Positions 21,647 through 53,305 of a stretch of 64,000 nt of DNA are shown in pieces. The DNA comes from a virus (Duplodnaviria; Caudoviricetes), in the IMG/VR virus record IMGVR_UViG_3300032069_000010, positions 749 through 64,748 of that record; one strand, written 5' to 3'. The notes beneath the pieces were generated by a model. That model was not told where the DNA came from. It did no database searches and worked only from the letters and a program-made list of their open reading frames with translations. A program made the translations under genes and the position numbers. Each line of letters opens with the position of its first letter. Positions within the stretch are counted from its first letter, which is position 1.

Positions 21647-21655
21647 AATAACTCC

Positions 21656-24600
21656 TTACCATTGTTTATCATCACCACGCAAAGGTGGCGAAGATGAGAA
21701 CCCAAGTAATGCTAACGCATTCCACATCGCATTACTTAACACATAAGCCCTATAAACACGCTTATCAGGATGAACTTCAATTAGATTTCCGCTATCAGAG
21801 TATATCCCCTCGCTAAACATAAATCGTCCATAGGGGAAAAACATCTCTAACTCAAACAACAAACTAAGGAGAAAATACTTTGTCGTAACAGCAGTTTCTG
21901 GAACAAGCAGTTTGAAAAAAAGTGACTTTTTTGAATGCGTGAACATCGGCCCAAAATCAACAACTGTACTTGGATAAAGTGCTATCCAGGTTCCACCATC
22001 AACCTTTACGCTCAACCACCCATTTTCAAGAATCTCTTTCCCGAGCGCATTTGTGGTTCCAGCCAATATCCTAAATTCAAGGTTTTCAACGAAAGGCAAT
22101 TTCTGATAACGCCCATACCAAAGTTCAAGCTCCCCGGTGTAACGCTCAACTCCATGTCTTACCCAATCCTCTTCTATAGTCAGCGCGTCGGCATCATACT
22201 TGTTGGGTTCATAGAGTTCTATCTTAGCAAACCCGCTTCTTGTTAGAGACGACTCCCATTCTACAAAGAAACTATACTGCACCGTCTCCATCACTGTCCC
22301 AAATAAAGACTCAGCATTAATCTCAACGCTTACTGTCTGTTCGTAGCTGAAATCAGGATGGCTAACTTCGATATAATACTCCGCTGGATTACCGCTATAG
22401 CTAAACTCTGGATCTACATAATCATATTCAACGCCATTGATTTTTACTCTGACCGTTGAAATATCAACCCCATCACTACCAAAACCAGTCCCACAAATAT
22501 TAAAACAAACCTTTTGGTTTCGCAGGACCAAAGTTTCACCAGGATGGGGACTCCTCGCTCTTACTGCTAACGGTTGAGGAAAACACAAGGTTGCATCTCC
22601 GAAAGCTTCCATAGAGCTAATTCCAGATGGAACAACTACTAAAAGCATAAGTTTCACAATTGTATTGCCAAAAATCTCAGCAGAATCTATCCCCGAAGGC
22701 AAAACTAACAGGGCATCCCAAACCGTTGGATTGCCAAGTGTCTCAATAGAACCTATCCCTGAAATAATAATTGCCACAGAACCAGGAACAACTAATAGAT
22801 TTCCAAAAACCTCCGCAGAACTGATCCCCGATGGATACAATATCAAGGCACCGCCAATAACCGTAGGACTGCCAAAATTTTCAGCAGAACTAATCCCGGA
22901 AGAATATATAGCTAAAATTAAAAAAATGTCGACAGTAATCCTGCTTGCATAGATGGGGTCATTCAGGACATTTGTGCTAATGGTCTGGGCAGTATCAGGC
23001 ATTGTCAAAGCAGAACCTATAGCTCTATAGGCTCCCGTGACAGTTGACCCAGCAATATCAACAGGTATTCCATTGGGATCTCTCTGTAGTTTAGCTGAAT
23101 CATTAATATCTGAGGACGAATTTATTTCGTGATAGTAATCATCAGCCACCCCCGACCATTCGCCAGGATCAAAATACGTATCATAGTCTTTTAATCCAAT
23201 CGAACCTTCATTCTTATTAATTAAAAGGTATTCTGCTTGGAGCTTATTAAAAACATTATCCTTTAATCCCCTTTGAATTCTGCCTGTGAAGTTTCCACTC
23301 GATGCATATACATAATCAGCATCCTGACAAACTCCATAAGGAGTGTTTGTACCGACGTTTAAATTACTAAAGGCCCCTCCCAGAGCCCACTCCATTTCAT
23401 AATTTAGGACAATCTCAGAAAATTTACGAATTCTTTCGACTCCCCTTTCATTTTGGTAATTAATACCAAAAATATAAATAAATTTGTCATCATCACACAT
23501 TGAGAACGGATATTTAATATATTTTAAGGGGTGTTCAAAATAATAGTAAATACTGTCTTCGAAATGAACTTTTGACCATCTTTCTACATACACAGGATCA
23601 TAGGTTCCAATTAAATAAACAAATTCCGAATCTTCACAAATATCCTTGTGCCCGCTCCAGCCATCCCTTGTGTAATGAAGACCAGTAAAATCAGATTTAT
23701 CAATCCTAACGATAAATCCAGGATTAATTGTGTCCAAGCAACCCCACACATAATTTCCTTCACCCGTGATTCCTGTAATATTGTTTTTCCCCGTATTTAA
23801 GGTCTTTGTTACATGTGTTCCACTAAAATCCGCTTTGGAAATTCGTGCTATTTTCGAGGGGCTGACGCTCAAAGCGACATAAACATAAGATAAGTCCTGA
23901 CAGATATCTACGCCATTAGTTTCCCCAAAATCAAGGGTTTTGTATATCGGCGTTCCAGTAAAATTCGATTTGGCAATCCGTGCTATCACGGCAGGAGAAC
24001 TATTATTTGAACAGACATAAACATAATCAGCGTCATCGCATATCCCGTAGGCGTTATTTAGCGATGAAAGAATAACGGTGATAGTGTCAGTGAAATTGGA
24101 TTTGTTGACCCTTACTACCTTACCAGGAGATTCATCAATTGCTATGTAAATGTAGTCTGCATCTACACAAGTTTTCCTGACATTAATATTGGAAAGGGAA
24201 TTCGTCTCAACATTCTTCATGAAATAGGAGTGTTTGACCACTATTTTTGCTGAATAAATGCTATAGGACGTTTGACCCTTAAGAGTAACAAGCCACGTTA
24301 CCACCCTATAGTTTCTTCCATTCGTAGGGAAAAAAGAATACCTAACTCTATCAGGGACTTGGCTACAAAGATTCTGGGTTTCGAAAACAGAATGCCAATT
24401 TTGGAAGTTCCCATCGTCTTCCTCAAGGAAACCCTGAACAAATTTACTATTTGAATTAACAATCATATAACAAAGATCAAGAAAGAACTCTGGTGTCCCA
24501 GAGAATTTGGAGCTATCATAATGCCAATATTTAGGATGATCTAATGGTATGGTAGGCCAAGCATATTCATTGACTTTGCCCCTCTCATCGCTTCCAATTT

Positions 24601-25003
24601 CTATCTGCGTTTCAGACAGAACAAATCCGGCTGACGATTCTTGAACAATGATAATACGTGCAGAAAGCACCTGGACATCTGAGGCCTTTCCTGGAGCTAT
24701 TCTTATAATGTACTCTGTTTCCCCTGCTGGGGGATTAAAGGATGAAGAACGGAATCTTGTAAAAGCCGTTGTATTCGCTGGGATAGAGCAAGTGGCATCA
24801 TCCGTGACCGTCCCGAGTCTTCGCAAGGTAATGGCATTAGCCGTAGTCGTATTTATATTTTTGGATACTACCTCAAAGTAATAAATAACTGTCCCGCTAA
24901 AAGATCTGGTATCAAGTAAAACTATGGCTTCAGAATCTTTCCCCTGGACTGTACTGCTCAGAATTGCATCAATAATATTAATTTCTTGCCTAATCTTAGT
25001 CAT
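21656..25003 (-). CDS. tail fibre/receptor-binding protein (propeller-like repeats, SGIxSAExFG repeats, Ig-like domain)
   Basis: Repeated (I/V)CxDxDY(V/I)Y blades; five SGIxSxExFG units; low GC. Confidence 0.65.
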   Translation of the reverse strand: MTKIRQEINIIDAILSSTVQGKDSEAIVLLDTRSFSGTVIYYFEVVSKNINTTTANAITLRRLGTVTDDATCSIPANTTAFTRFRSSSFNPPAGETEYIIRIAPGKASDVQVLSARIIIVQESSAGFVLSETQIEIGSDERGKVNEYAWPTIPLDHPKYWHYDSSKFSGTPEFFLDLCYMIVNSNSKFVQGFLEEDDGNFQNWHSVFETQNLCSQVPDRVRYSFFPTNGRNYRVVTWLVTLKGQTSYSIYSAKIVVKHSYFMKNVETNSLSNINVRKTCVDADYIYIAIDESPGKVVRVNKSNFTDTITVILSSLNNAYGICDDADYVYVCSNNSSPAVIARIAKSNFTGTPIYKTLDFGETNGVDICQDLSYVYVALSVSPSKIARISKADFSGTHVTKTLNTGKNNITGITGEGNYVWGCLDTINPGFIVRIDKSDFTGLHYTRDGWSGHKDICEDSEFVYLIGTYDPVYVERWSKVHFEDSIYYYFEHPLKYIKYPFSMCDDDKFIYIFGINYQNERGVERIRKFSEIVLNYEMEWALGGAFSNLNVGTNTPYGVCQDADYVYASSGNFTGRIQRGLKDNVFNKLQAEYLLINKNEGSIGLKDYDTYFDPGEWSGVADDYYHEINSSSDINDSAKLQRDPNGIPVDIAGSTVTGAYRAIGSALTMPDTAQTISTNVLNDPIYASRITVDIFLILAIYSSGISSAENFGSPTVIGGALILYPSGISSAEVFGNLLVVPGSVAIIISGIGSIETLGNPTVWDALLVLPSGIDSAEIFGNTIVKLMLLVVVPSGISSMEAFGDATLCFPQPLAVRARSPHPGETLVLRNQKVCFNICGTGFGSDGVDISTVRVKINGVEYDYVDPEFSYSGNPAEYYIEVSHPDFSYEQTVSVEINAESLFGTVMETVQYSFFVEWESSLTRSGFAKIELYEPNKYDADALTIEEDWVRHGVERYTGELELWYGRYQKLPFVENLEFRILAGTTNALGKEILENGWLSVKVDGGTWIALYPSTVVDFGPMFTHSKKSLFFKLLVPETAVTTKYFLLSLLFELEMFFPYGRFMFSEGIYSDSGNLIEVHPDKRVYRAYVLSNAMWNALALLGFSSSPPLRGDDKQW

Positions 25004-27062: not shown

Positions 27063-28978
27063 GATGACAACACCTTTCCTTGAACAACGATTCTCGTAAT
27101 CATGGAAGGCGATTCAGCTTCTTTCGTTTTTTGCCAGCTCACAATTTTCCCATCGGTAACGGAAACGGATGGGATCTGCGCCGCCTTTCCAATGTTTACC
27201 TCACCAAACTCAACCGGCCAACCAATATCAACATCCATATCCCCTGGGATAACATACTCTCTCTCAACGGTTTCTTCATAATCAACGACCTCTTTTTTTA
27301 AGTCACCGAGGATGGCTTCTGCATCATCCCACGAAATTATATTCGGATTGCTTATAATTACTGCGGGAACATCCATGGGGGTCATCTCGTCAGACGGAAT
27401 TGACTCGGCGTAAATATGGCTCCTACGGCACGATTTTGGATATTTTGGGACTCTTCCCATAATTCGCTGAGTCGTATTTGACCTAACCTCGTCACCTTGT
27501 TTTCTTCGAAGGCCGGCAGGCGTTCTTCTATAAACTGCTTTTTCGTAAACATCCTTGGTTAATTGTCTATACCTTGTTTCGGTTTCTTCAACGATCAACC
27601 TCTGTATTGCAGATGCGATGGGCCACATCATATCGGCCAGGTTTAACTCGATATAAGTAATATCTGTATAAAGACCCAAACCACTCTGAAGCACAAGAAC
27701 ATCGGTCTCTCTCGTCATATATTCAACCAACAGATTTCCATTTTTACCATAAACCTTTGAATTAACTATCACGTCAGTTTTTCTCTTATATCTCCTAACT
27801 GGATAACCAGGGAAGTCAACAATCAGCCATGTCCACTTACTTATTGTCTGTTCTGATGATTTCTCCCTTGGTTTATCATACTCCTCACTTAAATAGTCGT
27901 ACTCATTATTTGTAACTGAATCTAAAACGGTGAACTCTTCACCCATACCTTCTATCGGCACCCATGTCCCAACTTCATGCGTTGATAATAAAGCTTTCCT
28001 GTTCCCATGTGGATCTAACAAAATTGTCTCTGTTCGGGTTACCTTATCAATCCTGGGATTTTTCATTGGGACAGTAAACGACATTGGCACGTTATCTGTC
28101 GTCGTTTTTTCCCCAGTATCTTTATTTACGACTTCCCTTGTTCCCTTAACATTAATTGTCATGTATTGTTGCGTTGCCCGCGCCGATTCCGTCGTAAGCG
28201 TAGCATTTTTTTCCGGGTGAACATTGCCCTTTTCCTTTGCCCTATTCCAAGCTCCTAACCCACCCTGGACCTTCAGATAACTCACCCTGCTGTCGTAATT
28301 AAAAATTTCTCTTTGAGTAAAATTCTCTATCTTATCCAACGATACTAACCCACTTCTTAAAGGCTTATTGAGAATATAAATTATCCCATCATCTACAAAA
28401 ATGGTTGGCTTTAAAAAATTTACAATCGAAACAATCACATCAAAATACGAAGACTGAACGTCTGCCTGCACCTGTCTTAACCAGTAAGAACGAACGTTAC
28501 AGACGACCTCTAATCCAACTTTCTGAGCTAAATAAGCAATAACCTCGCCGCTTGCCCATCCACCTTCCAGCGTCCTGTCATCACATATCTTTATTAGCGG
28601 TATATAATCCATTCCCGAATAATCCACCGCACCAGAATCATTTTGGTTTGCAATCTCAAAATCATCTTTCTCCGATTCCGTCATAGACATAAACATCAAC
28701 GTTTTTGGCGGAGCTTTTCTAATAACGTCTGCCACTTTTGAGACCCCGCCTATCACGGTCTGGTAACCCTTGGGGCCAGAATTATACTCCCGTGTCGTCA
28801 CAAACCCATTTATTCCTCTTATCGTTATGTCAGACCCGGGCGGATAGCCAGCCTCAACGCTCGGCAGTGTGAGCGAGAAATCTTCTCCAGCGGATTCTTT
28901 AGCTCGACTGATTACATAATCAGATACAGGCGTGATTCCGAATGATAATTCCTTAATATCAACCAATCGACTCATCAA
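27059..28978 (-). CDS. tail tip/hub-like protein
   Basis: Directly after tape measure; 639 aa. Confidence 0.55.
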   Translation of the reverse strand: MMSRLVDIKELSFGITPVSDYVISRAKESAGEDFSLTLPSVEAGYPPGSDITIRGINGFVTTREYNSGPKGYQTVIGGVSKVADVIRKAPPKTLMFMSMTESEKDDFEIANQNDSGAVDYSGMDYIPLIKICDDRTLEGGWASGEVIAYLAQKVGLEVVCNVRSYWLRQVQADVQSSYFDVIVSIVNFLKPTIFVDDGIIYILNKPLRSGLVSLDKIENFTQREIFNYDSRVSYLKVQGGLGAWNRAKEKGNVHPEKNATLTTESARATQQYMTINVKGTREVVNKDTGEKTTTDNVPMSFTVPMKNPRIDKVTRTETILLDPHGNRKALLSTHEVGTWVPIEGMGEEFTVLDSVTNNEYDYLSEEYDKPREKSSEQTISKWTWLIVDFPGYPVRRYKRKTDVIVNSKVYGKNGNLLVEYMTRETDVLVLQSGLGLYTDITYIELNLADMMWPIASAIQRLIVEETETRYRQLTKDVYEKAVYRRTPAGLRRKQGDEVRSNTTQRIMGRVPKYPKSCRRSHIYAESIPSDEMTPMDVPAVIISNPNIISWDDAEAILGDLKKEVVDYEETVEREYVIPGDMDVDIGWPVEFGEVNIGKAAQIPSVSVTDGKIVSWQKTKEAESPSMITRIVVQGKVLSS

Positions 28979-31302
28979 GATTCTCCCACCGCTGACCGCA
29001 CCTCTTCCCGTAACTCATCTGGTTCACCCCACGTCTGTCCTTTGGGCGTTCTCTCTCCCCGGGTCTCCCTTGCTAACTGATTCGCTATATCCTGGAGATA
29101 CGCCGTATTTTTGTTAATGCTTCCCAGGCTTTCACTGTCCCCTTCGGCACGTTTCTCTTCTTTCTCCATTTGTTTCAACATTGCCTCGAGTGACTTGTTC
29201 ATATATTCCTGAGCTTTGAAAAAGTCACCCTTGCCCATAGCAATTCCAAACATTTCCTGATAAGCTTTCCCAGCAACCCCATACTCTTTTTTCTCCGTGG
29301 CAACGCCAAGAACACCGGTGAGCATCTTCTCGCGCTCAACGCCAAATCCTTCCATTCGATACCCTTTCTCTTCTCCTATATCCCTCTTTTTGACATAAGC
29401 CCGCCAATCCTCTGTCGTTATAGCTCCATATTCCCACTTCTCACGCATCGCCATGCTTTCCCTCAGTCGCCTTGTCTCTATATCATAAGGACTCTCCACT
29501 TCCTCGCGTCCAGCAAGAGCGCCAGCCATCGTCTTCCAAGATTGGTAATATCCAAATTTCTGTTCCGGCTTCATTACGAATGGCTCCGGTTCTTTCCACT
29601 CAGCCCCCATAGCTTCAGCTTCCGCCTTGCTCTTGGGCGTCCAGAGCGGCCTCTTCATCCATCTCTCAACCTCGCCTGGTTCGTGTTTAATCTCAAGCCC
29701 TCTGCGAAGAGTTTCTTCTTCCCAAATTTTATCGAAAGTTTTCAGTCCGGCAACAAACCGCCTAGCGCTTTCTTCCAGTTTCTTAAAAACAAAATCCTTA
29801 TCTTCCTTGGAAGGAACATACTTCTCAGCTTCCTCGATTTTCCTCTTCGCACCCCATATCGTATCGGCAGCCGCTTCCATTGCGTTAGCCAGGTCGCCAA
29901 CGCCCTCAATGGCAACGCCAATGATTTCGGCATAACCTTGAAGCGCTGGCCCTGCCATCGCTCCGATGGCTGCTCCTTTTGGTCCACCCATGGCATATCC
30001 AACCGCAGCGCCACCAGCCGCCTCAATTCCAACAGCCTTAAGGGGATTCTCCACGCGGTATGATGCCATCGTCTTTTCCACACCAGCCATGGCGCTTCCT
30101 ATGGCAGGCAATAAAACCTCTGTAAATGCAGTGACCGCAGTTTGCGCTACAAATTTAAACGTAGCCTTCAACGCATTCCCGAGAGGCTCCTTGGCCACTT
30201 CCCATGCCCTCATTAATTCTTCCTTGGCGTTTTCCCAGACTTTTTTCAAAGCGTCAGCCAAACCACTCAAAGAAGAAATTCCTTCCCAGTCAATGCCTTT
30301 CGTAAAAACACCCGCAATCCTATCTGCAACGCTTTCCAGGAAGGAATTAATCTGTTCGGTCCATTTCTGGACTTTGTCGGACTTTAAAAATCTATCAATC
30401 GAATCGTTCAGTTTAAGCAGATAATCCACAACTTTTTGGTAAATTCCAGTCTTTCCGAGACGGTCCAACCACATCTCGTATTTATCTTTCACGTTTCCCA
30501 TCTGAATTCCAAGGTTCTTCGCCGCCATTGCCATCGTATCAGCGCCGACAAATTCGTCTGTCCATGCCTTCAATGCCTTTATTGCTTCCTGCGGAGAAGC
30601 TTTCATCTGCTCCATCGTCATGTTTGCGCTACGAGCAATCGATGCGACAGGCACATCAAACCTGAACTGAAGGCTTCTCCAGTTCCCGGCAAGGGCCTCA
30701 CGTATTGCCATCATAGCTCCAACAACGCCCTGTTCCGGTCTCATCGTAAGCATGCCCTGAATGATGTTCATGAAGTCTTTCATCAGCCTTACATCGCCTT
30801 CCATTAGGCCAATTTTAGTTGCGGGGATAAAAGCAAGGGACTGCATCGACTGCATGACATCTCTATACATAGCAGGATATTCAGCAGCATACTCCTTGGC
30901 AAACGTGGATACCTTCGTCACTGCATCCCAGCTTTTCAACGCACCATACAGCGAAATCTCCATCTGTTGAAAACCTTCCGTGGTCTTCAACATGGATGTC
31001 GTCCATTTTGTAAAGCTTGACACTACAACACCGCCTACAACCGCAGATAGAGCGCCAACTACGGTGGTAACGGCACCTACGACCGCGACGAGGCGACCAA
31101 GGCCGGAAACAGCTTCCGAAGCCCCGCCCTTCATGGTCGTGAAAAGAGACGCCGTATCCTGTTCGGCTTTCTTAGCGCTTTCCGACATTGGACGGAACCA
31201 TTGTCCACCGCCGTAAATTCGTGTGGTGCCTTCTAACTCGAGAAGCTCGGACTTAATCTTTTGGAAACCGCTTGATTCGTACTTTACGGTAATATCGCCC
31301 AT
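28975..31302 (-). CDS. tape measure protein
   Basis: 775-aa Ala/Gly-rich helical protein with hydrophobic segments, following the tail chaperones. Confidence 0.8.
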   Translation of the reverse strand: MGDITVKYESSGFQKIKSELLELEGTTRIYGGGQWFRPMSESAKKAEQDTASLFTTMKGGASEAVSGLGRLVAVVGAVTTVVGALSAVVGGVVVSSFTKWTTSMLKTTEGFQQMEISLYGALKSWDAVTKVSTFAKEYAAEYPAMYRDVMQSMQSLAFIPATKIGLMEGDVRLMKDFMNIIQGMLTMRPEQGVVGAMMAIREALAGNWRSLQFRFDVPVASIARSANMTMEQMKASPQEAIKALKAWTDEFVGADTMAMAAKNLGIQMGNVKDKYEMWLDRLGKTGIYQKVVDYLLKLNDSIDRFLKSDKVQKWTEQINSFLESVADRIAGVFTKGIDWEGISSLSGLADALKKVWENAKEELMRAWEVAKEPLGNALKATFKFVAQTAVTAFTEVLLPAIGSAMAGVEKTMASYRVENPLKAVGIEAAGGAAVGYAMGGPKGAAIGAMAGPALQGYAEIIGVAIEGVGDLANAMEAAADTIWGAKRKIEEAEKYVPSKEDKDFVFKKLEESARRFVAGLKTFDKIWEEETLRRGLEIKHEPGEVERWMKRPLWTPKSKAEAEAMGAEWKEPEPFVMKPEQKFGYYQSWKTMAGALAGREEVESPYDIETRRLRESMAMREKWEYGAITTEDWRAYVKKRDIGEEKGYRMEGFGVEREKMLTGVLGVATEKKEYGVAGKAYQEMFGIAMGKGDFFKAQEYMNKSLEAMLKQMEKEEKRAEGDSESLGSINKNTAYLQDIANQLARETRGERTPKGQTWGEPDELREEVRSAVGES

Positions 31303-31315
31303 CTATCACTCCATT

Positions 31316-31348
31316 GTTTCAATCCACGCTCCTATACGGGGAAGCGAC
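31316..31348 (-). CRISPR. solitary type I-C-like CRISPR repeat
   Basis: GTCGCTTCCCCGTATAGGAGCGTGGATTGAAAC; intergenic, 13 nt before the tape measure ATG. Confidence 0.75.
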
Positions 31349-31354
31349 AAACTT

Positions 31355-32077
31355 CTATGCCCTGCCCATCTTTGTTTCCTCATCTATTTCGATGAGAATC
31401 CGGTCAAGCCGTCCTTCGGCTCGAAGCTTATCCAAATACCATTCAGGCGGGCTTGCATCAGAATCTTGCCATCCAGGTGGGTAAAGTTTTGACCTCTTGA
31501 TGTCGATCATGATCATCTTTTTTACGTGGTCTAACGTAAACGGTATCTTTTTCGTTTGCGCCTGCTTATAGAAAAACCACAACTTATCGTTCATCGAACA
31601 TCGCTTGGCCACGATGCCATACTTCCCAAGACAAGAATCGGCTCGCCCTTTATCCCATCTTTTCTCTGGCGCCATCTTTGACCAAAACCGTTTCGAAACG
31701 GCAATCTTCCCTGCCACCTGAGAATAATCAAAATATTCGATGTCGTATGGGAATGCATAAAGAGGATCTTGCAGCCACCGTTCGGCCATTTTCTTTTTAC
31801 TATCTCTATCCTTTTTGGCTTTCGGATCGTACCCCCACTGAACCATTGCCTGACGTTCCATCTCTTTAAAGATTCTCCTCTGCATGTAATACCAATACAT
31901 CCGGACCAACGGCCTCGTCATTTTGGTCTGGATGTATTCTCTGCTATATCCATACTGATGGGCAAAGGCTTCGTAAATTTCGCCTAAGCTGGGGTAGGTT
32001 CGGTCTTCTGGGTCTTCTCCTCTGTCCCTGCTGAGGGCGCCTTCCCCATCCCTATCATCCCCAGCAGTTTCTGGAAA
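31355..32077 (-). CDS. tail assembly chaperone -1 frameshift extension (gpGT-like)
   Basis: The frame of ORF 31355-31921 stays open upstream through LGEIYEAFAHQYGYSREYI to slippery heptamer A AAT TTC at 32074-32080. Confidence 0.7.
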   Translation of the reverse strand, partial: FPETAGDDRDGEGALSRDRGEDPEDRTYPSLGEIYEAFAHQYGYSREYIQTKMTRPLVRMYWYYMQRRIFKEMERQAMVQWGYDPKAKKDRDSKKKMAERWLQDPLYAFPYDIEYFDYSQVAGKIAVSKRFWSKMAPEKRWDKGRADSCLGKYGIVAKRCSMNDKLWFFYKQAQTKKIPFTLDHVKKMIMIDIKRSKLYPPGWQDSDASPPEWYLDKLRAEGRLDRILIEIDEETKMGRA

Positions 32078-32532
32078 TTTTCTTGGCTTTCCTTGGGAAG
32101 CCCTTCACTGCTGAAGTTTTGCAGATAGAAGACCGCTGCAACGTGTTTCAATTGAAGAAGCGTGAGCTTACTTTTTACTTCCTCGACAGGAAGGTCAAGA
32201 ATCATGTGAATCCATTCGGGGACCTTTCCGCCCCCAATAATCGATTCAATAGGAGATCTTCTCATGTCAGAGAGCGTCTCCTTGTCTACTGGACATTCTT
32301 CGATCTTTTTTCCAACAGCATTTTTGACTACCTTTCCGCATTTCGGACACTTCCGGTCGGGGTTGAAAATATCATCGAAATATAGTGCGATGTCTTTCGA
32401 CACCAGCTCTAACTGGCCTTCCCATAACGGGTAAAGCTCGTACGCCTTTTCTCCAATCACAATAATTCGTTTATTTTGTTCTGGTAACAATACTGCCAAT
32501 TCATCCGGCACAGGAACTTCTTTTGCACCCAT
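31984..32532 (-). CDS. tail assembly chaperone (gpG-like) with zinc ribbon
   Basis: Position before tape measure; in-frame slippery site; CPKC..CPVD. Confidence 0.7.
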   Translation of the reverse strand: MGAKEVPVPDELAVLLPEQNKRIIVIGEKAYELYPLWEGQLELVSKDIALYFDDIFNPDRKCPKCGKVVKNAVGKKIEECPVDKETLSDMRRSPIESIIGGGKVPEWIHMILDLPVEEVKSKLTLLQLKHVAAVFYLQNFSSEGLPKESQENFQKLLGMIGMGKAPSAGTEEKTQKTEPTPA

Positions 32533-32595
32533 CGTCGTCTCCTCTTCCGGAGCTTAGGGGAAGCCATCTTCCCCTTCTCGCCCCTTCATTAAAGG

Positions 32596-33471
32596 TTATG
32601 CAATCGTGACCTTTGCAGTCCAACCAAGCGCGCTCTCGTTGACCTTCACCATCCCGGCAGCATCTTTCGCCACCACGCAGATGAAATAATCACCAGCAGT
32701 CAAGGTCGCTAGCTCCATCGTTGATTCGTTGAAATACTGGGTGAGGTTCACGTTCGTTGAAGCCAGGCTTGCCGCCCTGTCTGCCACCGACGGAAGATCG
32801 TTCGGCTCGATTACCGACGGCTGATTATCTACCTTAAAAGCGTAGATGTCGTAATACTGAATGACTACATCGCTCGGCTTTGTCCAACTGACATTGATTC
32901 CGCTAGCCACCGTTCCCGTTGCGGTCACTCCGGTCGGTGTGGTCGGTTTTTCAAGCTGTGCCTTAATCCCCAACTGGCTGTTCTCGCCAAGCGGAGACGC
33001 AAAGGAATTCGCCTGCTGGACAATCCACCCGACTTTGCAATCCACACCGAGAGCTCCTTCGCCCGTAGCTGGAATGGTAAAGTCGGCGCCAACCGCAGTC
33101 GGGATAAACCAATCTTTCATCGACCCATACTTATCCATCACAATGCATGGGACATTTGCCACAAACCCCTGAACGTTGGCCGCAGGCGTAACGCTCAGCG
33201 TGACGCCATTCGCTGTGAAAGCGGTATCAATTAATGACTGAACGATGTTCCTTCGGATTCCAGAAGGTCTCCCATCAAGAAGATCCGCAATCAGATCGTC
33301 GATATTCTCCATAATCGACTGCGCCCCCGATGCGGTCGCCTTTAAGAAAAAGTTTTCCGTGGCCCCCTCTTCGGTATCGACCCGGTAGCGCTCAATATCC
33401 ACGGCCACCTGAGTGGTTACCTGCGCCCCTGTGACAGGGTTCGTATACTCTACTGAAATATTCTTTGACAT
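32596..33471 (-). CDS. tail structural protein with C-terminal Fn3-like domain
   Basis: PTTPTGVTAT..INVSWT..YYDIY..YFICVVAKD; followed by hairpin GGGGAAG-CCAT-CTTCCCC. Confidence 0.65.
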   Translation of the reverse strand: MSKNISVEYTNPVTGAQVTTQVAVDIERYRVDTEEGATENFFLKATASGAQSIMENIDDLIADLLDGRPSGIRRNIVQSLIDTAFTANGVTLSVTPAANVQGFVANVPCIVMDKYGSMKDWFIPTAVGADFTIPATGEGALGVDCKVGWIVQQANSFASPLGENSQLGIKAQLEKPTTPTGVTATGTVASGINVSWTKPSDVVIQYYDIYAFKVDNQPSVIEPNDLPSVADRAASLASTNVNLTQYFNESTMELATLTAGDYFICVVAKDAAGMVKVNESALGWTAKVTIA

Positions 33472-33489
33472 TTTCCTTCTCCTTTCTTT

Positions 33490-33774
33490 TTAAGATGAAA
33501 CATGCCTTTGCATATTGATTTGGGCGTTGTAGAGATCGAGCGCCTCATGAATCGCTGTTCTGCTAACATCTCCGACAATCACCCACCCATCGACGGCTTC
33601 GGCTTCTTTCGCCTCAATTTCAGATTGAAGCTCCGCCGTCGTTATCCAGTAAAACCGATACACTTTTCTCTCGATAAACCCCAACTCCTGAACGACAGAT
33701 TCACCGTCAATCGTCGGCAGTTCGGTTCGTCTCTTCGTCTTAAAGGGCTTATCAAAAACGGTTGAATAAGCCAT
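33490..33774 (-). CDS. tail-region hypothetical protein
   Basis: AGGAG RBS directly after CRISPR-like repeat. Confidence 0.65.
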   Translation of the reverse strand: MAYSTVFDKPFKTKRRTELPTIDGESVVQELGFIERKVYRFYWITTAELQSEIEAKEAEAVDGWVIVGDVSRTAIHEALDLYNAQINMQRHVSS

Positions 33775-33789
33775 CCTTAGCTCCTACGC

Positions 33790-33821
33790 GTTTCAATCCA
33801 CGCGCCCACATGGGGCGCGAC
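33790..33821 (-). CRISPR. solitary type I-C CRISPR repeat
   Basis: GTCGCGCCCCATGTGGGCGCGTGGATTGAAAC, 32 nt, perfect stem CGCGCCC/GGGCGCG and I-C 3' end TGGATTGAAAC; intergenic. Confidence 0.85.
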
Positions 33822-33839
33822 GACAAAAAAATGCTTCTC

Positions 33840-34577
33840 TTATGGCGTTGCAGACGAATCATAGATTTCTACGGTTTCCTCTACGTTCGCCTTGTCTGTT
33901 CCGTTAAGAGTCGTCGTCCTAGTGAGCTTGTACCAATCACTAATCGCATCAAGCTCGACTTCCGTGAACAACTGCGGGCTTATCATGTTCTGCTGAGCAT
34001 TTGCCACCGTGTTGCCGATATACTTTGTCAGCTCAACCGTGAACTTCTGCCAATCCGTCACGCTCTTGCTTACTTCGACACGGCTCACGTAAAGGCCACT
34101 CTCCTGGATTGCAGGTGAATCTCCTACCGCAGGCTTAATCAGCACTTCTCCTGCATACGTATTTCCTCTATCAGCAGGTTGCATCCCCGCAGGCGGATCA
34201 CCTCTCCCGTTGATCGTGATCGTAATCTTCTTCCGAAAGAAAATAAGCCCATTTGCATAGGTGAGCTTATCCCCAAGGGCAGGGGACGTTTCAGGCTGAG
34301 TTGCAATCATGTGCGGAGTTGTGCACTGCTCTTCTTCAGCCATCGTCACTGTATCCAACGGAACGCCAAGACTATTCCGTGTCGGATCGTCAGACTTGCC
34401 AATCCCATAAGTCTGAGCGCAAAACGATGGATTCCCTCTTCTCAGGTTATCAGTAAACTTCAAGGAGAAAATATCGGTCTCGAATCCATCCCGAAATTCC
34501 AACTGGTCAGTCAAAAAGCCATGCGTTTCAGCTTCAACCGAACCTGCTGCGCCGAATTTGGGCCACGCTGCACACAT
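33840..34577 (-). CDS. tail structural protein (possible tail tube)
   Basis: Thr-rich beta protein following the tail-terminator-like gene. Confidence 0.5.
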   Translation of the reverse strand: MCAAWPKFGAAGSVEAETHGFLTDQLEFRDGFETDIFSLKFTDNLRRGNPSFCAQTYGIGKSDDPTRNSLGVPLDTVTMAEEEQCTTPHMIATQPETSPALGDKLTYANGLIFFRKKITITINGRGDPPAGMQPADRGNTYAGEVLIKPAVGDSPAIQESGLYVSRVEVSKSVTDWQKFTVELTKYIGNTVANAQQNMISPQLFTEVELDAISDWYKLTRTTTLNGTDKANVEETVEIYDSSATP

Positions 34578-35374
34578 AGTAAATCCCTCCTTTCCAATAA
34601 ATTCTGGAAATAGCTCTTCCAGTATTCCCTGTTTTTATTAACTTTGACGTTACAACTAAGGCATAACGTCACCAAATTTTGGGGATCACAATTCTCTTTC
34701 TTGTAATCGATGTGATGGAGCCCTAAACCCTTGAACTGCTTCTTCCCACAAAGTTGGCATGTAAAATCATCTCTCCTTTTTATCTTATTCTTGAGACTGC
34801 CGTTAAACTCAGGCGTGTATGGCAAAAAAGATACACCACCGAGCCATACGGGCGACTTTTCACCACTCATTCCATACATTGGGTTCTTCTCGCCACTAAC
34901 TCTCTCAGAATATTGCCTTCTTTGCTCATCAGTTAAATTAAAACTCACACCAAGTTTATTCCCACCCTTATAGCCAGGCTTCCTCCACAGCTTCTTCACA
35001 GAAGCACTTACTTTCCCTGCAAGCGTGCGGACCCTTTCATCATTATCTTTTGTTTTGCCAGCATTCCAAGGAACTTGTCCAGTTTTCTTCCCTTTATTCC
35101 ATGCTGGTTTTCCACCAAACCTTGATCGTCTTGTTCTTTCTTCTTTGGCGGTTCTCTCCTCTGGTGTCATCGCGGCACGTAACCGGTTCCTTTTCCGTCT
35201 GGCCCACTCCACCTTATATTCCCTTTGATCAATCGTTCTTCGGGCAAGACCATGCTTCACACCGTTATGCCCGTGAATGAATCTGTAAGGCTCGCCCTTA
35301 ACCATCCCCTTACTTGGACGGTTTCTTTTTGCAATCGGGGCCGGTTTTCCACACCCGCATTCACATAGCTTCAT
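34511..35374 (-). CDS. free-standing HNH homing endonuclease with NUMOD3-like repeats
   Basis: CECGCG, PAWNKG/PWNAGK, GEKNPMYG, CQLCG..LHHIDY..NLVTLCLSCN; ATGA overlap with upstream gene. Confidence 0.85.
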   Translation of the reverse strand: MKLCECGCGKPAPIAKRNRPSKGMVKGEPYRFIHGHNGVKHGLARRTIDQREYKVEWARRKRNRLRAAMTPEERTAKEERTRRSRFGGKPAWNKGKKTGQVPWNAGKTKDNDERVRTLAGKVSASVKKLWRKPGYKGGNKLGVSFNLTDEQRRQYSERVSGEKNPMYGMSGEKSPVWLGGVSFLPYTPEFNGSLKNKIKRRDDFTCQLCGKKQFKGLGLHHIDYKKENCDPQNLVTLCLSCNVKVNKNREYWKSYFQNLLERRDLLCVQRGPNSAQQVRLKLKRMAF

Positions 35375-35847
35375 GGCAAAACTGATTCTCTCCAAACATA
35401 GACGTTAAATTCAATCGCTTGCACGTTCACTGTCTCGCCGGCAGCTTCTGGCAGTGGGCGTGAACCGCGATACCTTGGAATCAGCACGTTTCCAGTCGGT
35501 ATGGGGTTATTTTCATCATTACTAAAATCGAGCAGGTCAATCGTATCGACATTCAATTCCTCTTGGACCTCGTCAACCATCTTGGAAAGCTCAACCCCAT
35601 ACCTGTCCTTCTCTATGATCGTGTTGCAATTAATTTGCAAAAGACTCACGCTGAAAATCCCAGGACCAACCCTCAACCAATAAATGTCAATCCACTTCCA
35701 GTAATCAGTCACCTTCTGCGCAATCCGTTGCTGAAGCGTTTCGTCCCCAGGCGCCGAATAGTTGACATAGTAGTTAGCTGAAAGGCGTTCCCAGACAAAC
35801 TTGTTAAAACTCCTTTTGATATTCAGCTCACGGTCTTTTGCAAGCAT
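35371..35847 (-). CDS. tail terminator/completion-like protein
   Basis: Position and size in the neck/tail module. Confidence 0.5.
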   Translation of the reverse strand: MLAKDRELNIKRSFNKFVWERLSANYYVNYSAPGDETLQQRIAQKVTDYWKWIDIYWLRVGPGIFSVSLLQINCNTIIEKDRYGVELSKMVDEVQEELNVDTIDLLDFSNDENNPIPTGNVLIPRYRGSRPLPEAAGETVNVQAIEFNVYVWRESVLP

Positions 35848-36052: not shown

Positions 36053-36502
36053 TCAACCCCAAACGTCCCTGATATTATTTAGAAGCCTTTCCGCAATCTC
36101 CTTGGCAGACTTATCAAGATCATCCTGTGTAAGCCTTACAAACCCTAACGGCTTCGTCCCTGGATGAAAAACCCTATGAGCAAAAATCGTCTCTCCATCA
36201 ATTTCAAACTTCAATGCTCCGCCTTCCTTCGCCTCGATAACGTGAGGTCGTGTCCCAAACTCAAGATACGTTACTTCTTTCTCCTTACCATCAGGGCTAA
36301 TCTCCCAAACAATTGCATCCTGCGCCTTGTGATAGTGAATCGTCCACGAATCAGACGTTTTGCCTGTTTTCCTTGGCGTTCTTGCCGCAATAACTGTCAA
36401 AAAATACGTGGCAAGGGCATACGCTTGAGTCTCGGCGACAGAAAAAAGTCTCAATGTTCTTCTGATCTTTTCCTGCAACTCTCTCGTCTCAACACTTATC
36501 AA
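36053..36502 (-). CDS. HK97 gp10-like neck/tail completion protein
   Basis: TPRKTG, YLEFGTRPHVI, VFHPGTKP. Confidence 0.8.
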   Translation of the reverse strand: MISVETRELQEKIRRTLRLFSVAETQAYALATYFLTVIAARTPRKTGKTSDSWTIHYHKAQDAIVWEISPDGKEKEVTYLEFGTRPHVIEAKEGGALKFEIDGETIFAHRVFHPGTKPLGFVRLTQDDLDKSAKEIAERLLNNIRDVWG

Positions 36503-39119: not shown

Positions 39120-40175
39120 CTACGAAAACACGAGCCTCGAAAGTCCTGTTTTTATCTCCTGAATAATTCTCTCTGTGTCCGACTTCCTTAGGCAATCAAC
39201 GGTTCCTTTACACCGGGTCTGTCTTCCAAAGCAAGACTCACAGCCAACCATCTCTGCCAGGTCGATCGAGTGATAATTTCTATGATGAGCCATCTTCTCT
39301 TTAGCCCTCGTATGTCCAAACATGGCAATAATCGGAGTCTTTGTGCAGTGGGCAATCCATAAAGCACCACTATCCATCGTTATGGCAACGTCAGCGCTGT
39401 CTATAAGCGCAGCAGCTTCATGGAAGGTCGTCTGTCCGGCAAGATTGCAAATACCTTTTACTTTAATGTCTTGCTTGAAATTGTGGATCATAACCACCGA
39501 ACAAACCTTCGACAGTTCGTCGGCTATCCTTATTACCTTCTCTAAAGGAAAACTATTAAACCACATCGCTCCAGATAGTTGCATAACAGCGACAGGCCTT
39601 CCATTTTCCCTACGCGTCTCAACGATCGTTTTTGCCCAGTTTTTTTCGACATCACTGTACGGGAGCGAAAAGATTGGTTCCTTCGGAACAGGCCAACCGA
39701 CAAAATCGCAGTTAATATCCAACCTGTGTTTATAGCTATAGGCATCCCCGGCGTGGTCCTTTTCAACGACGCCATCCAGATAATACCCGACGTCATAACG
39801 CTGGAACTGGACGCTATTTTTCCCGATCGTCTTCACCAAATCCCAATACTTAAAAAGGCTCAAAAACCCATCAGCGGTAGCAAGCACCACCTTGCTCTCC
39901 GGATAGGCTTCTTTCAACGAATTGATAAGGGGAGTTAAAACGAGAATGTCGCCGAGCGCGTAGGTTCTCCACAGACAAATGGTGGCATCTGGATTCCGCC
40001 GCATGAATTCATCAAGGCGCACCCCATCGGAAAGACTCGGCAGATGAATGGATGCCACTGCCTCATCGTCAAAACAAAAACGTGGAAACACGGTTACCGG
40101 CTCCATGCTTGGGAACCGATAAAATACTTCTACTAACTTTGACGCATTGAATCTCATCGTTACCTCCACACCCAA
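39120..40175 (-). CDS. glycosyltransferase family 9 (heptosyltransferase-like)
   Basis: ALGDILVLTP, AALIDSADVAITMDSGALWIA, IAMFGHT. Confidence 0.88.
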   Translation of the reverse strand: MGVEVTMRFNASKLVEVFYRFPSMEPVTVFPRFCFDDEAVASIHLPSLSDGVRLDEFMRRNPDATICLWRTYALGDILVLTPLINSLKEAYPESKVVLATADGFLSLFKYWDLVKTIGKNSVQFQRYDVGYYLDGVVEKDHAGDAYSYKHRLDINCDFVGWPVPKEPIFSLPYSDVEKNWAKTIVETRRENGRPVAVMQLSGAMWFNSFPLEKVIRIADELSKVCSVVMIHNFKQDIKVKGICNLAGQTTFHEAAALIDSADVAITMDSGALWIAHCTKTPIIAMFGHTRAKEKMAHHRNYHSIDLAEMVGCESCFGRQTRCKGTVDCLRKSDTERIIQEIKTGLSRLVFS

Positions 40176-40241: not shown

Positions 40242-41333
40242 TTACGATGAGATCAATGTTACCGTTGCGAAACAGTCGCCGTTCACGCACTTCTTTGCAA
40301 ACCGGCTCATCATGCCCCTTACAGGCTGCATCGTGTTTGGATCGATCAAGAGCGGAGTCGTATACAAGGGGATGTACGGAGCATAGACATACCCCGTATC
40401 AAGCCAGGAAGCGCCCTTGAAGCCGAGAAGCATCTTGTTTCCCTGGAACCAGGGGTGTTTATAGACAACGAACCGATTCTTCAGAACGCCGAACCTATGG
40501 ATGCCGATATTGAAGACTGCATCATCCACCGTCTCTTCGAGCTTGAACCCTTCCAGCTTCTCAAGACGGGTGCAGACATCGGAATCAGCCACGATCCAGG
40601 TGGCGTTCCGATATCTCTTCTTGAAAATCATGTTGTTTCCATCCACGATGGCGTCATACAAGGTTGCCTTATAGACCTTCGGGTCGAGATTCGTCCAAGG
40701 AGCTTCAGCAGGAGCATTGATATTCCAGTTCACATTCCCCGCGGTGGCGTTCGTAACCATATCATCGATGAGGATCATGTCAACTTCTCTGATAATTTCA
40801 TCTGAGAGGACGATCATCAGTTCATCCTCAGCATTCAGCCCATGGTAAGCCTTCAGGTCCTGCTGGGCTTCGATCGTCCATTTCGCCTTGAGCGCCTTTT
40901 CCTCGGCATCCACGGCTACAGACGAAATATCGAAATTGACTTCAGCAACCTCCCCCGTCTCAGGAGTTCTGTCTGCATAATTCTTCGCCGCGTTACCTTT
41001 CTGATCGAGCCTGTCACCTGCTGTGATTGACCCCTTTGCGGTTCCATATTTGAAATCAAGGAAGAATACCTTCCCGGTTGGTTGCGTCATCGGCTGGACA
41101 GAGCAGAGGGTCTGTGCAATCAGCTTGGGAAAGATTCTCCGGATCATGGGGAATGCGAACGTTGTAAATGGCCCCACGTTAGTCATGAAAGATGTCTCAC
41201 TCAACGCCCTCTGCATATTATCCAGAAGGACCTCACATTGAAGGCGCTTCTCTGTATCCAAACCTTCGGTCAGATAAGTCCATTTCTTTTGCCTCTCGGC
41301 ATTCTCTTCAATCAAATATTTTCTTGGGTCCAT
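40242..41333 (-). CDS. major capsid protein, T4 gp23-like
   Basis: VQPMTQPTG, LKAKWTIEAQQDLKAYHGLNAEDEL, GYVYAPYIPL, P.RGMMSRFA. Confidence 0.95.
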   Translation of the reverse strand: MDPRKYLIEENAERQKKWTYLTEGLDTEKRLQCEVLLDNMQRALSETSFMTNVGPFTTFAFPMIRRIFPKLIAQTLCSVQPMTQPTGKVFFLDFKYGTAKGSITAGDRLDQKGNAAKNYADRTPETGEVAEVNFDISSVAVDAEEKALKAKWTIEAQQDLKAYHGLNAEDELMIVLSDEIIREVDMILIDDMVTNATAGNVNWNINAPAEAPWTNLDPKVYKATLYDAIVDGNNMIFKKRYRNATWIVADSDVCTRLEKLEGFKLEETVDDAVFNIGIHRFGVLKNRFVVYKHPWFQGNKMLLGFKGASWLDTGYVYAPYIPLYTTPLLIDPNTMQPVRGMMSRFAKKCVNGDCFATVTLISS

Positions 41334-41474: not shown

Positions 41475-42797
41475 TTAGGCGCTGGCACCCTTCTCAAGAA
41501 TTCCAGCAAGAGCCCTCTGACGCTTCTGCTCAGAGGTCAAAACCTCTTCCTGCTTATCCTCGTTCAAGACCTTTCCTCTTCCCTTTTCCTGATCATCAGG
41601 CCTCCTCTGGTCGAGAAGCTTCTTGATATATGCCTCTTCTTCTACCACCTTCGTGTCGACTTCTTCAACGGTCTTGCAGGAACTGAGCCTTTCAACCAGA
41701 ATCTTCTCGTGCTCTTTGCCGGCCGTGACCTCCTCGATTTTCTTCTTTACCTTCTCTTTCGTCTCAGCGGCCTTCTTCTCATACTCGATTTGCTCTTTAA
41801 GAACCTTATTCTCTCCCTTCAATGTCTCGATCTCGCTTTCCATAGCGGCAACCTTCTCTTCGGAATCATCTTCGTCATCCTCACCTGCGCTCTCGGAGAC
41901 GTAGGGCTTGATCAGCTTCCCAATTTCCGTAAATGTGCCAATCATGGCCTGAAAATCATCGGAGCTCTTAATCTCTTCGATGACTTCCTTTTTAATTTCC
42001 TCTTCCTTGGCTTCGACTTCTTTCAGGATTCGAGAATCAAACTCCTTCTGAAGGATCTCTTTGACTTCCTTTTCCTTCTGCTCCATAGCCTCTTTGGCAA
42101 GCTGTTCACAAAGTTCGGGATATGCCTTCTTCAACTCCTCAACGTTTTTAATTTCCATACTCGATGAACCTCCTTTCGTTTTTTGTGTTTCACAGACTTC
42201 CTGCTTGCAGCCATCACATGGACCGCATTCTAAAATGTTTACCACTTCCACCTGCTCAGTAACTTGAGTGACCACGGCATCCTTCGTCGACTGCCCAATC
42301 ACAAAATCAAACGTCTTTAGCGTCAAATCCTCTTGAACAATGTCCGCCATCTTCCCTTGCCAATTGCCCTTTAGAACAGAACCAAAGGCTCTGCTCGAAA
42401 GTCCAATCTTGCCGCCAGCTCGAATAATCTCCTGCAAATTTTTTCCGCCAGGCTCGGTATTTAAAATGGTCGCCTCTCCAAAATAAACCTTTCTCCCATC
42501 AAGCACCCCTTTCTCAATTCCAGTCAGCATGGCAGCGGTATTCTTGATCGTTGATTTCCCGTCTCCTGGATGATCAGCTTCACCATAAACGCTATTCTCC
42601 GCCATCATAGGTTTCAGCTTCTCGATCTCGCGGTCAAGAATATACTCACGATACACACGCCCATTACCATTTATTTCGTCTGCAACGGTAAAAATTCCTT
42701 TCACCCGCATTCTTCCACCATTTTTTGCAGAAGCTTCTTCGAGAATGGTAAAGGCAACCGGCATCGTCTCGATCAATAATTCCTTCTCCACTTCCAA
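41475..42797 (-). CDS. prohead protease (T4 gp21-like) fused to acidic coiled-coil scaffold
   Basis: NGNGRVY, GEADHP, IGLSSRAFGS, TFDFV; E/K-rich C-terminal half. Confidence 0.92.
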   Translation of the reverse strand: MEVEKELLIETMPVAFTILEEASAKNGGRMRVKGIFTVADEINGNGRVYREYILDREIEKLKPMMAENSVYGEADHPGDGKSTIKNTAAMLTGIEKGVLDGRKVYFGEATILNTEPGGKNLQEIIRAGGKIGLSSRAFGSVLKGNWQGKMADIVQEDLTLKTFDFVIGQSTKDAVVTQVTEQVEVVNILECGPCDGCKQEVCETQKTKGGSSSMEIKNVEELKKAYPELCEQLAKEAMEQKEKEVKEILQKEFDSRILKEVEAKEEEIKKEVIEEIKSSDDFQAMIGTFTEIGKLIKPYVSESAGEDDEDDSEEKVAAMESEIETLKGENKVLKEQIEYEKKAAETKEKVKKKIEEVTAGKEHEKILVERLSSCKTVEEVDTKVVEEEAYIKKLLDQRRPDDQEKGRGKVLNEDKQEEVLTSEQKRQRALAGILEKGASA

Positions 42798-50501: not shown

Positions 50502-50514
50502 TTCGCACCTCCGA

Positions 50515-51213: not shown

Positions 51214-51457
51214 AATTGAATATTGCTTTTACTTCTAAAGGTTCAGACCAAAGCTCAAACTTCATCTTTCCAACAATCCCGTCATAAACCGGCATAGAGA
51301 TATTGCCTTGCACTCCGCCCTCTACAAGCTTCCGAATCGCGACTAACGTCTCATCCAGAATCTGTTTCTTCTCTTCCGGCGTCTTATGCTCTTTCCTGAA
51401 GCCCATCTTGCCCTCCACGCTATCGATAAATTTTACTAACGATCTTCCGCCCGACAA
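51176..51457 (-). CDS. hypothetical protein (probable start MGFRKE)
   Basis: GGAGG upstream of internal ATG. Confidence 0.55.
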   Translation of the reverse strand: MSGGRSLVKFIDSVEGKMGFRKEHKTPEEKKQILDETLVAIRKLVEGGVQGNISMPVYDGIVGKMKFELWSEPLEVKAIFNFGGEKNASNKLA

Positions 51458-51752: not shown

Positions 51753-51762
51753 AAAAATACCC

Positions 51763-53153: not shown

Positions 53154-53305
53154 TTCTTCTTCCCTGTCTCAGGAATGGAAATGATCTTGCGAAGTCCCGC
53201 AAGGATTCCATCTTCGTTATCCAGCAACTCCTTATGGAACTCAGCAGAATCCTTATCTACAAACTTCTTATCTTTACGCAGCTTTAATAACTTCCCCGGC
53301 TTCAC
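53150..53305 (-). CDS. 51-aa peptide downstream of GNAT (not in ORF track)
   Basis: GTG start: MKPGKLLKLRKDKKFVDKDSAEFHKELLDNEDGILAGLRK..; homologous to the N-terminus of 54581-55339. Confidence 0.7.
   Translation of the reverse strand: MKPGKLLKLRKDKKFVDKDSAEFHKELLDNEDGILAGLRKIISIPETGKKK

Follow-up and report, generated by a model that had tools for sequence, protein, structure and literature searches.

The 64,000-nucleotide (nt) window analysed here, bases 749-64748 of the linear 64,748-nt record of a sediment phage (IMG/VR record IMGVR_UViG_3300032069_000010; Duplodnaviria, Caudoviricetes; CheckV completeness about 53%), contains two solitary type I-C CRISPR repeats, named R1 and R2, within a block of tail genes. 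The genes of the block, which like nearly all the long open reading frames (ORFs) of the window lie on the minus strand, follow the order 245-, 94-, 291-, 182- and 188-amino-acid (aa) genes, then 775-, 639-, 617- and 1115-aa genes; R1 is found between the first two (junction 1) and R2 directly upstream of the 775-aa gene (junction 2), as detailed in Table 1. From order and size this is probably a siphovirus-like tail module. Of its proteins, the 775-aa one has a family match, a weak one (phrog_1047), and none was found for the others; the co-directional tail block of the original prediction stands, while its terms "late tail operon" and "tape measure" have gene order, size and weak matches only as their basis. 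Both repeats read in the CRISPR RNA (crRNA) sense relative to the tail genes, with their 3' ends 15 nt (R1) and 13 nt (R2) before the ATG codons at 33774 and 31302, respectively, and the gap between them is 2,441 nt long and holds four ORFs; this orientation and spacing, about 2.4 kb, had been correctly predicted.

R1 and R2 have the 5' GTCGC and the 3' 14 nt in common, and their differences are confined to the upper stem and the loop, with one compensating change in the stem from G-C to U-A. Each is predicted to form a stem-loop whose 5' tail is 2 nt and whose 3' tail is 11 nt long; the R1 hairpin has a 7-bp stem and a 5-nt loop (-14.0 kcal/mol), and the stem of R2 counts 6 bp, one of them G-U, under a loop of 8 nt (-6.9 kcal/mol). 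Within the 64,748-nt record the shared 14-mer, GCGTGGATTGAAAC, is found at two places, both on the reverse strand, and its backwards control at none, and the full-length degenerate I-C pattern had no occurrence in 100 shuffles. The 11-mer alone is at chance level, with five matches at up to one mismatch against 2.18 expected, a count reached by six of 100 shuffles. A third or degenerate copy was not found in the record, the next-best ungapped matches reaching at most 19 of 32-33 positions. An Rfam scan gave no match at the gathering score, the CRISPR-DR9 matches remaining sub-threshold (21.9 and 17.3 bits, cut-off 45). R1 was also considered as a terminator and rejected: the T-run precedes the hairpin instead of following it, and a terminator scan lists neither repeat.

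The length of 32-33 nt, the 5' GTCGC, the G+C-rich stem-loop, the 3' 14-mer and the 11-nt tail are those of type I-C repeats, and the same pattern builds arrays with 33-36-nt spacers in the loci that were fetched. Indeed, exact R1 copies are found in CRISPR arrays on seven genome contigs; of five metagenome-assembled genomes (MAGs) with R1 arrays that were searched, three contain cas8c/csd1, and in two of them gene and array share one contig (G005:C39 and G004:C48). An array of identical repeats next to cas8c was seen for R1 only, R2 having no exact copy elsewhere in viral contigs. Sequence, pattern shuffles, folds and, for R1, the arrays beside cas8c thus confirm the prediction of two solitary I-C repeats of 32 and 33 nt, without spacers and without nearby cas genes: neither has another repeat at spacer distance, and searches of the 64.7-kb record (about 53% complete) for the Cas5d, Cas1 and Cas7 families returned nothing. 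This is the state of a solitary repeat unit (SRU), different from that of a CRISPR array or mini-array, in which at least two repeats lie about 30-40 nt apart.

The solitary state bears on two other explanations. In the first, the repeat and a downstream "spacer" would form a guide-like RNA (crlRNA or Cracr) steering the host Cascade to the repression of host cas or toxin promoters, and viral Cracr candidates against I-C loci are indeed reported (10.1101/2024.10.29.618823). Such mini-arrays have a second repeat-like element, and the spacer they enclose partially matches a host promoter; at R1 and R2 no second or degenerate repeat is present within spacer distance, and the would-be spacers consist of the ribosome-binding site (RBS) and first codons, which are conserved in repeat-free relatives and not free to match a promoter, so that a guide function is very improbable. 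In the second, the repeats would be attachment or recombination sites for phage integration into a host CRISPR array, a role that has been proposed for SRUs, with prophage integration into CRISPR repeats cited in PMC10651486 and PMC8616872. Even less can be said for it here: no tyrosine integrase was found in the record (about 53% complete) and no lysogeny genes were seen, and the two repeats, which are direct copies, are placed within an essential tail operon of a phage with T4-like head genes.

Relatives of this region were recovered from one viral locus and twelve metagenome loci, L117 and L122 seeming to be the same sequence; their proteins are 74-87% (245-aa), 65-84% (94-aa) and 67-89% (291-aa) identical to those of the window. 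No repeat is present in any of 12 loci over junction 1 or in any of three over junction 2. Junction 1 measures 11-49 nt in the 12 loci, and its longer forms consist of a T-run, yTGAwTTTACGCTGAT and then GCGTAGGAG, which holds the RBS. In six of the 12 a small stem-loop directly precedes the RBS of the 94-aa gene: in L118, L121 and L129 it is UUUACGC-UGAU-GCGUAGA, while in L127 a different stem, CAAAAG-UGAUG-CUUUUG, occupies the same spot, which suggests a conserved intercistronic RNA structure. Five loci (four distinct sequences) have a junction 1 of 11-13 nt with no hairpin. The window retains the T-run, GTC and GCGTAGGAG, and R1 takes the place of 17-19 ancestral nt; judged from this comparison, R1 has replaced a small ancestral stem-loop. 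A cassette with conserved flanks was ruled out, the flanks of R1 being ancestral. In L117/L122 the stop and start codons overlap as TAATG at junction 2, with no hairpin, and L120 has an insert of about 4 kb (L120:8093-12089) with three ORFs, one of 886 aa with a DUF2341 domain; the chaperone/tape-measure junction, which holds R2 in the window and this insert in L120, is an insertion hot spot.

The ancestral hairpin, located exactly where R1 sits, would also be expected if the repeats were generic intercistronic stem-loops that govern how stable the mRNA of the major-tail-protein block is, or how it is processed or translated, with or without Cas5c, and R1 and R2 do bracket the 94-aa, major tail and chaperone genes, setting them apart from the tape measure gene. 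This explanation is nonetheless unlikely, since the hairpin is missing at junction 1 of five relative loci and at junction 2 of L117/L122, a generic hairpin need not retain the 11-nt I-C handle and GTCGC, the folding z-scores of the R1 and R2 contexts are unremarkable, and a tail assembly reliant on a host immune nuclease would be fragile. The related idea of the original prediction, that host Cas5c tunes tail-gene stoichiometry, found no support beyond the geometry: the relatives do without repeats, and a site just before the RBS is expected from purifying selection on packed genes.

Near-identical strains do have both repeats. Three further sediment runs (X2, X3 and X4), which belong to different studies, have Logan contigs that cross both of them gap-free, and R2 is letter-identical in X2, whose 11 differences all lie elsewhere in the contig, and in X3, which has no differences. 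In X5, a more distant groundwater strain, R2 lacks an extra T (deletion at 31342) and the linker between repeat and RBS is 4 nt longer, indicating that R2 evolves in place; no X5 contig bridges R1. Absence from distant relatives and presence in close strains date the insertion after the split of the relatives and before that of the strains, in which the repeats have persisted. In the same runs sequencing depth over R1 climbs to as much as 3,055, the adjoining sequence being at about 20, and there are joints that step back by 33-34 nt with an interval of 33-35 different letters. Both reflect CRISPR arrays, built of R1-like repeats and 33-35-nt spacers, that are present in the same metagenomes as the phage.

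Such abundance of R1-like arrays is what an assembly artefact would need, in which phage and host-array reads are joined through k-mers common to spacer and protospacer, and arrangements with one stretch X on both sides of a repeat R (X-R-X) could likewise be graph loops. An artefact is, however, hardly credible, because the junctions of the IMG/VR record recur in three other runs (Logan contigs), an R2 indel variant with phage flanks is present in a fourth run, R2 is found exactly in no other viral contig, and no repeat-less joint at the R1 or R2 site was found in the run contigs. That the two repeats are genuine I-C SRUs, and that the phage lineage acquired them, is held with high confidence.

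The origin of the repeats was examined in a wider population. Scans of IMG/VR with the I-C pattern returned at least 114 stretches in the first scan and 59 in the second (...AAAT variant); after removal of copies with a similar repeat within 120 nt, of those near locus ends and of redundant ones, 78 solitary I-C repeats were retained among the matches listed, 76 of them outside the window (loci L003-L116 and L137-L193), and the SRU counts that follow refer to these listed matches. The protospacer adjacent motif (PAM) of type I-C systems is TTC. At R1, a TTC is followed by a 34-nt stretch that ends at the repeat, which is the geometry of a PAM plus protospacer; the stretch covers the 3' end of the 245-aa gene, the stop codon and the T-run, and together with its TTC it is ancestral, L127 and L121 having ...TATGATTCGTCTG... 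in common. The same geometry recurs in the population: TTC lies 33-36 nt upstream of 25 of the 78 SRUs (26 occurrences against 6.1 expected; Poisson p 2e-9) and is the most enriched of the 64 trinucleotides at this distance. Its counts at offsets 33/34/35/36 are 3/8/4/3 in the first set of 59 SRUs and 1/4/3/0 in an independent second set of 16, while on the control strand (the reverse-complemented downstream flank) the profile is flat; the combined values, 4/12/7/3, mirror the numbers of 33-, 34-, 35- and 36-nt spacers in the fetched arrays (69/117/72/35). TTC is also found 5' of two of the three spacer-protospacer matches among the fetched loci.

A second signal comes from direct duplications. 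Flanking copies of at least 8 nt are found at six of the 59 SRUs of the first set, against 0.9% of mismatched flank pairs, and the duplications span 7-34 nt across SRUs. In L116 a 33-nt duplication abuts the repeat on both sides; in L032 a duplication of 34 nt, preceded by TTC, abuts it upstream and is one base off downstream. The shorter ones are preceded by TTC (L050 and L103), TTT (L018, L065 and L095), CTT (L028) or CTC (L010). The flanks of R2 have an 8-mer in common, AGATGGGC, which is in register when 34 nt is taken as the unit; three of the 78 SRUs have at least 8 matching letters so placed, against 0.18% in the null, and for R2 it is a hint only, the remaining flank sequence being unlike.

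In the L141 array two adjacent spacers are each a perfect match to one and the same 34-nt stretch of L154, and an array can thus hold X-R-X with identical spacers. For a spacer of the L156 array, an I-C array in a viral contig, there is a perfect match in an SRU-bearing contig, and TTC adjoins it (L183:8000-8033 and L185:5208-5238 were compared); a second SRU-bearing contig has the same site with two mismatches and no TTC, and looks like an escape variant.

The PAM distance and the duplications together indicate that the DNA upstream of many SRUs is a PAM-flanked protospacer, joined to the repeat as an array spacer is. Derivation of R1 and R2 from a host array, through recombination where the phage was targeted, is judged probable, with moderate confidence. 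The original prediction, right about the existence of the repeats, had missed this signal, namely the PAM at spacer distance and the replaced ancestral hairpin. The signal appears to be new, and priority is not claimed; no mention of a PAM at spacer distance or of flanking duplications was found in the available parts of PMC10651486, PMC8616872, 10.1101/2023.03.03.530964 and 10.1101/2024.10.29.618823.

The host itself was sought by several routes. No DNA match was found between the phage and cultured phages, and the relatives of its major capsid protein are at most 36% identical and spread over many hosts. Exact R1 arrays occur in unrelated MAGs (Eubacteriales, Bacteroidales and an unclassified bacterium), and five R1-array genomes match the phage at the repeat only. 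Outside the repeats, no match beyond 23 nt was found between the fetched loci and the window; 307 spacers from 52 loci gave only 12-13-nt chance matches to SRU flanks, and an exact copy of the 34 nt upstream of R1 was not found in viral contigs. That the host lineage has a type I-C system, as the original prediction requires, may be supposed from indirect signs: arrays of R1-like repeats accompany the phage in its metagenomes, and R1 stands one spacer length behind an I-C PAM.

Orientation provides evidence on function. With a sense call that relies on crude ORF coverage, 27 of the 32 SRUs with a clear co-directional context are in sense orientation (33 of 74 being unclear), and with five parameter sets, the window being left out, sense to antisense counts are 24:5, 21:5, 20:4, 17:5 and 9:1 (33-60 of 72 unclear). 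This bias is unexpected from accidental capture and points to selection at the RNA level. A location in structural operons was also considered as a general rule for SRUs and rejected, the PHROG matches of ten neighbours being mixed (HNH, SbcC-like, tail fibre and unknowns).

These counts have to be weighed against the possibility that R1 and R2 are neutral scars, leftovers of host-array recombination tolerated in intergenic spots and devoid of function. The PAM and duplication signals themselves point to an accidental origin, all the relatives lack repeats and are seemingly intact, R2 has a weakened stem and a T that X5 does not have, the position before an RBS is accounted for by selection on the neighbouring genes, and no acr (anti-CRISPR) neighbours were found in the family searches. 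On the other hand, the population sense bias is strong, and since GAA is commoner than TTC in coding strands a neutral origin would predict the opposite bias; moreover, both repeats are found gap-free in three other metagenomes, and where R1 and R2 differ, the 5' GTCGC and the 3' 14 nt are spared. Absence of function is, on balance, rather unlikely.

A mechanism that would join capture and retention can be proposed. A phage protospacer would recombine with the matching spacer of a host array, or a break would be repaired from it, and one repeat would be captured. Integration at a spacer X followed by repeat-by-repeat excision would give X-R-X, while conversion from adjacent spacers (S1-R-S2) would give a short duplication if the two protospacers overlap and, if a few nt separate them, a replacement such as that at R1; an alternative route, through a Cas1-Cas2 half-site intermediate, would produce the same left junction. 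The only survivors would be insertions falling exactly in gene junctions with the RBS kept, which would explain why R1 and R2 stand just before one. Read in the crRNA sense within the tail-gene transcript, their RNA would mimic host pre-crRNA: Cas5c would bind it and cut at the hairpin base, the 11-nt handle would remain on the downstream mRNA, and either this handle or the hairpin on the upstream piece would draw Cas5c and Cas7 into useless complexes. An open-ended Cas7 filament along the downstream mRNA is also conceivable, by which much Cas7 would be sequestered and the RBS possibly covered. The I-C handle is 11 nt long and Cas5c stays with the 5' handle. Processing of I-C repeats by Cas5 is given in a legend of PMC10651486, and Cas7 filaments of a minimal I-F system are as long as the RNA from the 5' tag to a 3' roadblock allows (PMC4937334).

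The whole account, array capture plus retention as sense-transcribed Cas5c/Cas7 decoys, in which we infer the recombination mechanism, the transcription, the Cas binding and the effect on immunity, is preferred tentatively, at slightly less than even probability. Several points weigh against it. The relatives without repeats seem intact and do well, and no spacer matching the phage was found in the fetched loci, the five genomes or the viral contigs. With regard to capture, R2 has no TTC 33-36 nt upstream, the right-hand junction of R1 has no PAM in the relatives (TTT in L127; GAT in L129, L118 and L121), and X-R-X duplications in single assemblies could be graph loops. As to retention, the extra T of R2, absent in X5, and its weak stem look like decay; a late structural operon is an odd site for an early-acting immune inhibitor; a Cas7 filament extending from the handle over the RBS would block the phage's own translation; and the sense count rests on an ORF-coverage call that leaves 33-60 SRUs unclear. 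Finally, an acr neighbour or an adjacent promoter, frequent but not obligatory for RNA anti-CRISPRs (Racrs), is lacking: no promoter-like site adjoins R1 or R2 in a scan of the window, and no recognisable acr gene was found near them in general family searches, a dedicated Acr library not being among those used.

Generalized to type I-C, decoy retention after array capture would mean that SRUs are born at past CRISPR hits as PAM-protospacer-repeat or, at times, protospacer-repeat-protospacer units, that sense copies are kept as decoys and that those of the window act as long late-transcript Cas7 sinks; this wider proposal is advanced with somewhat more reserve. Each SRU would then be the fossil of a past CRISPR hit, naming the host subtype, the PAM and the spacer length, and two copies on an abundant late transcript would place Cas5c handles at the head of kilobase-long RNAs, binding far more protein per RNA than a small Racr. 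SRUs and Racrs are a recently recognised anti-CRISPR class, and how a phage acquires a host repeat is not explained in the available parts of the literature examined. If the PAM and duplication signals hold, they would provide a mechanism for the birth of RNA anti-CRISPRs, make host CRISPR subtype, PAM and spacer length readable from uncultured phage sequence, and explain why repeats turn up inside essential operons. Taken alone, the window is a modest case: a real and ordinary SRU pair, with two copies in an unusual place, a structural operon just before RBSs.

Beyond the repeats, the window contains T4-like head genes and several further features. A free-standing HNH/NUMOD3 endonuclease gene lies between the 158-aa and 245-aa genes; since these are neighbours in L117 (158-aa proteins 74% identical), it is a homing-endonuclease-type insertion. 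Seven ORFs or segments in the interval between portal and prohead protease genes have the motif L/F-x-E-GG-(A/P)-GSGN(W/F)GHKGRPGxRGGS in common, whose L-x-E start resembles the T4 prohead-protease cut site, and these proteins may be processed and packaged; a 1189-aa member has DRAT-like ADP-ribosyltransferase and GNAT matches. In two regions, long genes are made of units of about 69 nt (23 aa) that both regions have in common (repeat family D1), and the 1152-aa protein has a Laminin_G_3 domain. A glycosyltransferase family 9 gene, located after the capsid gene and before the neck gene, may point to a lipopolysaccharide-bearing host.

Table 1. Coordinates of the repeats, their surroundings and other features; positions are those of the window unless a relative locus is named.
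Feature	Position	Strand	Remarks
R1, solitary type I-C CRISPR repeat	33790..33821	-	32 nt, GTCGCGCCCCATGTGGGCGCGTGGATTGAAAC, reads 33821..33790
R1 3' tail		-	11 nt, UGGAUUGAAAC
Linker, R1 to 94-aa gene	33775..33789	-	15 nt, GCGTAGGAGCTAAGG; RBS AGGAG 33785-33781; GCGTAGGAG ancestral
TTC (33858-33856) and 34-nt stretch (33855-33822) ending at R1	33822..33858	-	PAM-plus-protospacer geometry
R2, solitary I-C-type repeat, weakened stem	31316..31348	-	33 nt, GTCGCTTCCCCGTATAGGAGCGTGGATTGAAAC, reads 31348..31316
Linker, R2 to 775-aa gene	31303..31315	-	13 nt, AATGGAGTGATAG; RBS GGAG 31312-31309
245-aa gene, upstream of R1	33840..34577	-	no family match; relatives 74-87% identical
94-aa gene, directly downstream of R1	33490..33774	-	no family match; relatives 65-84% identical
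291-aa probable major tail protein	32596..33471	-	C-terminal FN3-like domain, below Pfam cut-off; role by position
Probable tail assembly chaperone pair, different frames	31984-32532 (182 aa), 31355-31921 (188 aa)	-	role by gene order
775-aa probable tape measure, directly downstream of R2	28975..31302	-	phrog_1047 tail match, E 1.1e-5; size and order
HNH/NUMOD3 endonuclease gene, free-standing	34511-35395	-	
Neck gene	36053-36502	-	PHROG tail completion/Neck1; HK97-gp10-like just below Pfam cut-off
Glycosyltransferase family 9 gene	39120-40175	-	heptosyltransferase-like
Gp23 major capsid protein	40242-41333	-	E 2e-64
Prohead protease	41475-42797	-	
Family D1 repeat genes	43150-46608, 20564-25003	-	
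Seven motif-bearing ORFs/segments	50374-57907	-	
Gp20-type portal interrupted by intein with HNH domain	58901-62578	-	Pfam Portal_T4, Intein_splicing, HNH_3
Stem-loop region of relative L118	L118:1135-1187		
Stem-loop region of relative L121	L121:2226-2274		
Stem-loop region of relative L129	L129:758-808		
Stem-loop region of relative L127	L127:1975-2029		

Among known systems the closest is RacrIC1, an I-C SRU of a Bifidobacterium pseudocatenulatum prophage described by Camara-Wilpert et al. 2023, which lies 11 nt downstream of an acrIC5 homologue, is co-transcribed with it, inhibits I-C interference and rescues a targeted phage (PMC10651486, which also reports 2,103 viral SRUs). Like RacrIC1, R1 and R2 are solitary I-C repeats in a cas-free phage, a few nt from a gene of the same orientation; RacrIC1 sits within the transcript of its gene, and R1 and R2, judging from strand, would do the same. 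Differently from RacrIC1, for which inhibition is demonstrated and which belongs to an anti-defence locus with its own promoter, they are two copies in a structural operon, upstream of RBSs and with no acr neighbour. The decoy role put forward in the original prediction would thus fit the RacrIC1 precedent and the population sense bias, and departs from it in the acr-neighbour and promoter context. RacrIF1 is cut by Cas6f and nucleates an over-long Cas7f filament without Cas5f and Cas8f (same source). R1 and R2 resemble it, and SRUs in general, as mimics of a CRISPR repeat on a mobile element, which are proposed to tie up Cas proteins in aberrant complexes; however, RacrIF1 is a small RNA with its own strong promoter and its active part lies upstream of the Cas6f cut, whereas the cutter in I-C systems is Cas5c, and since Cas5c stays on the handle the downstream mRNA could be the I-C decoy. 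With the viral Cracr and crlRNA mini-arrays (10.1101/2024.10.29.618823) R1 and R2 would have in common the use of host Cas proteins by a repeat-derived phage RNA. In Cracr/crlRNA and in mini-CRISPR arrays, though, two repeat-like elements surround a target-matching spacer, while R1 and R2 each stand alone, and the 2.4 kb that separate them hold coding sequence. Virus-borne mini-CRISPR arrays were reportedly described by Medvedeva in 2019, and Varble et al. in 2019 are said to have found that spacer-protospacer homology is used for recombination between phages and CRISPR loci, with transduction of the latter, whereas here a single repeat would have been left beside a PAM-flanked protospacer.

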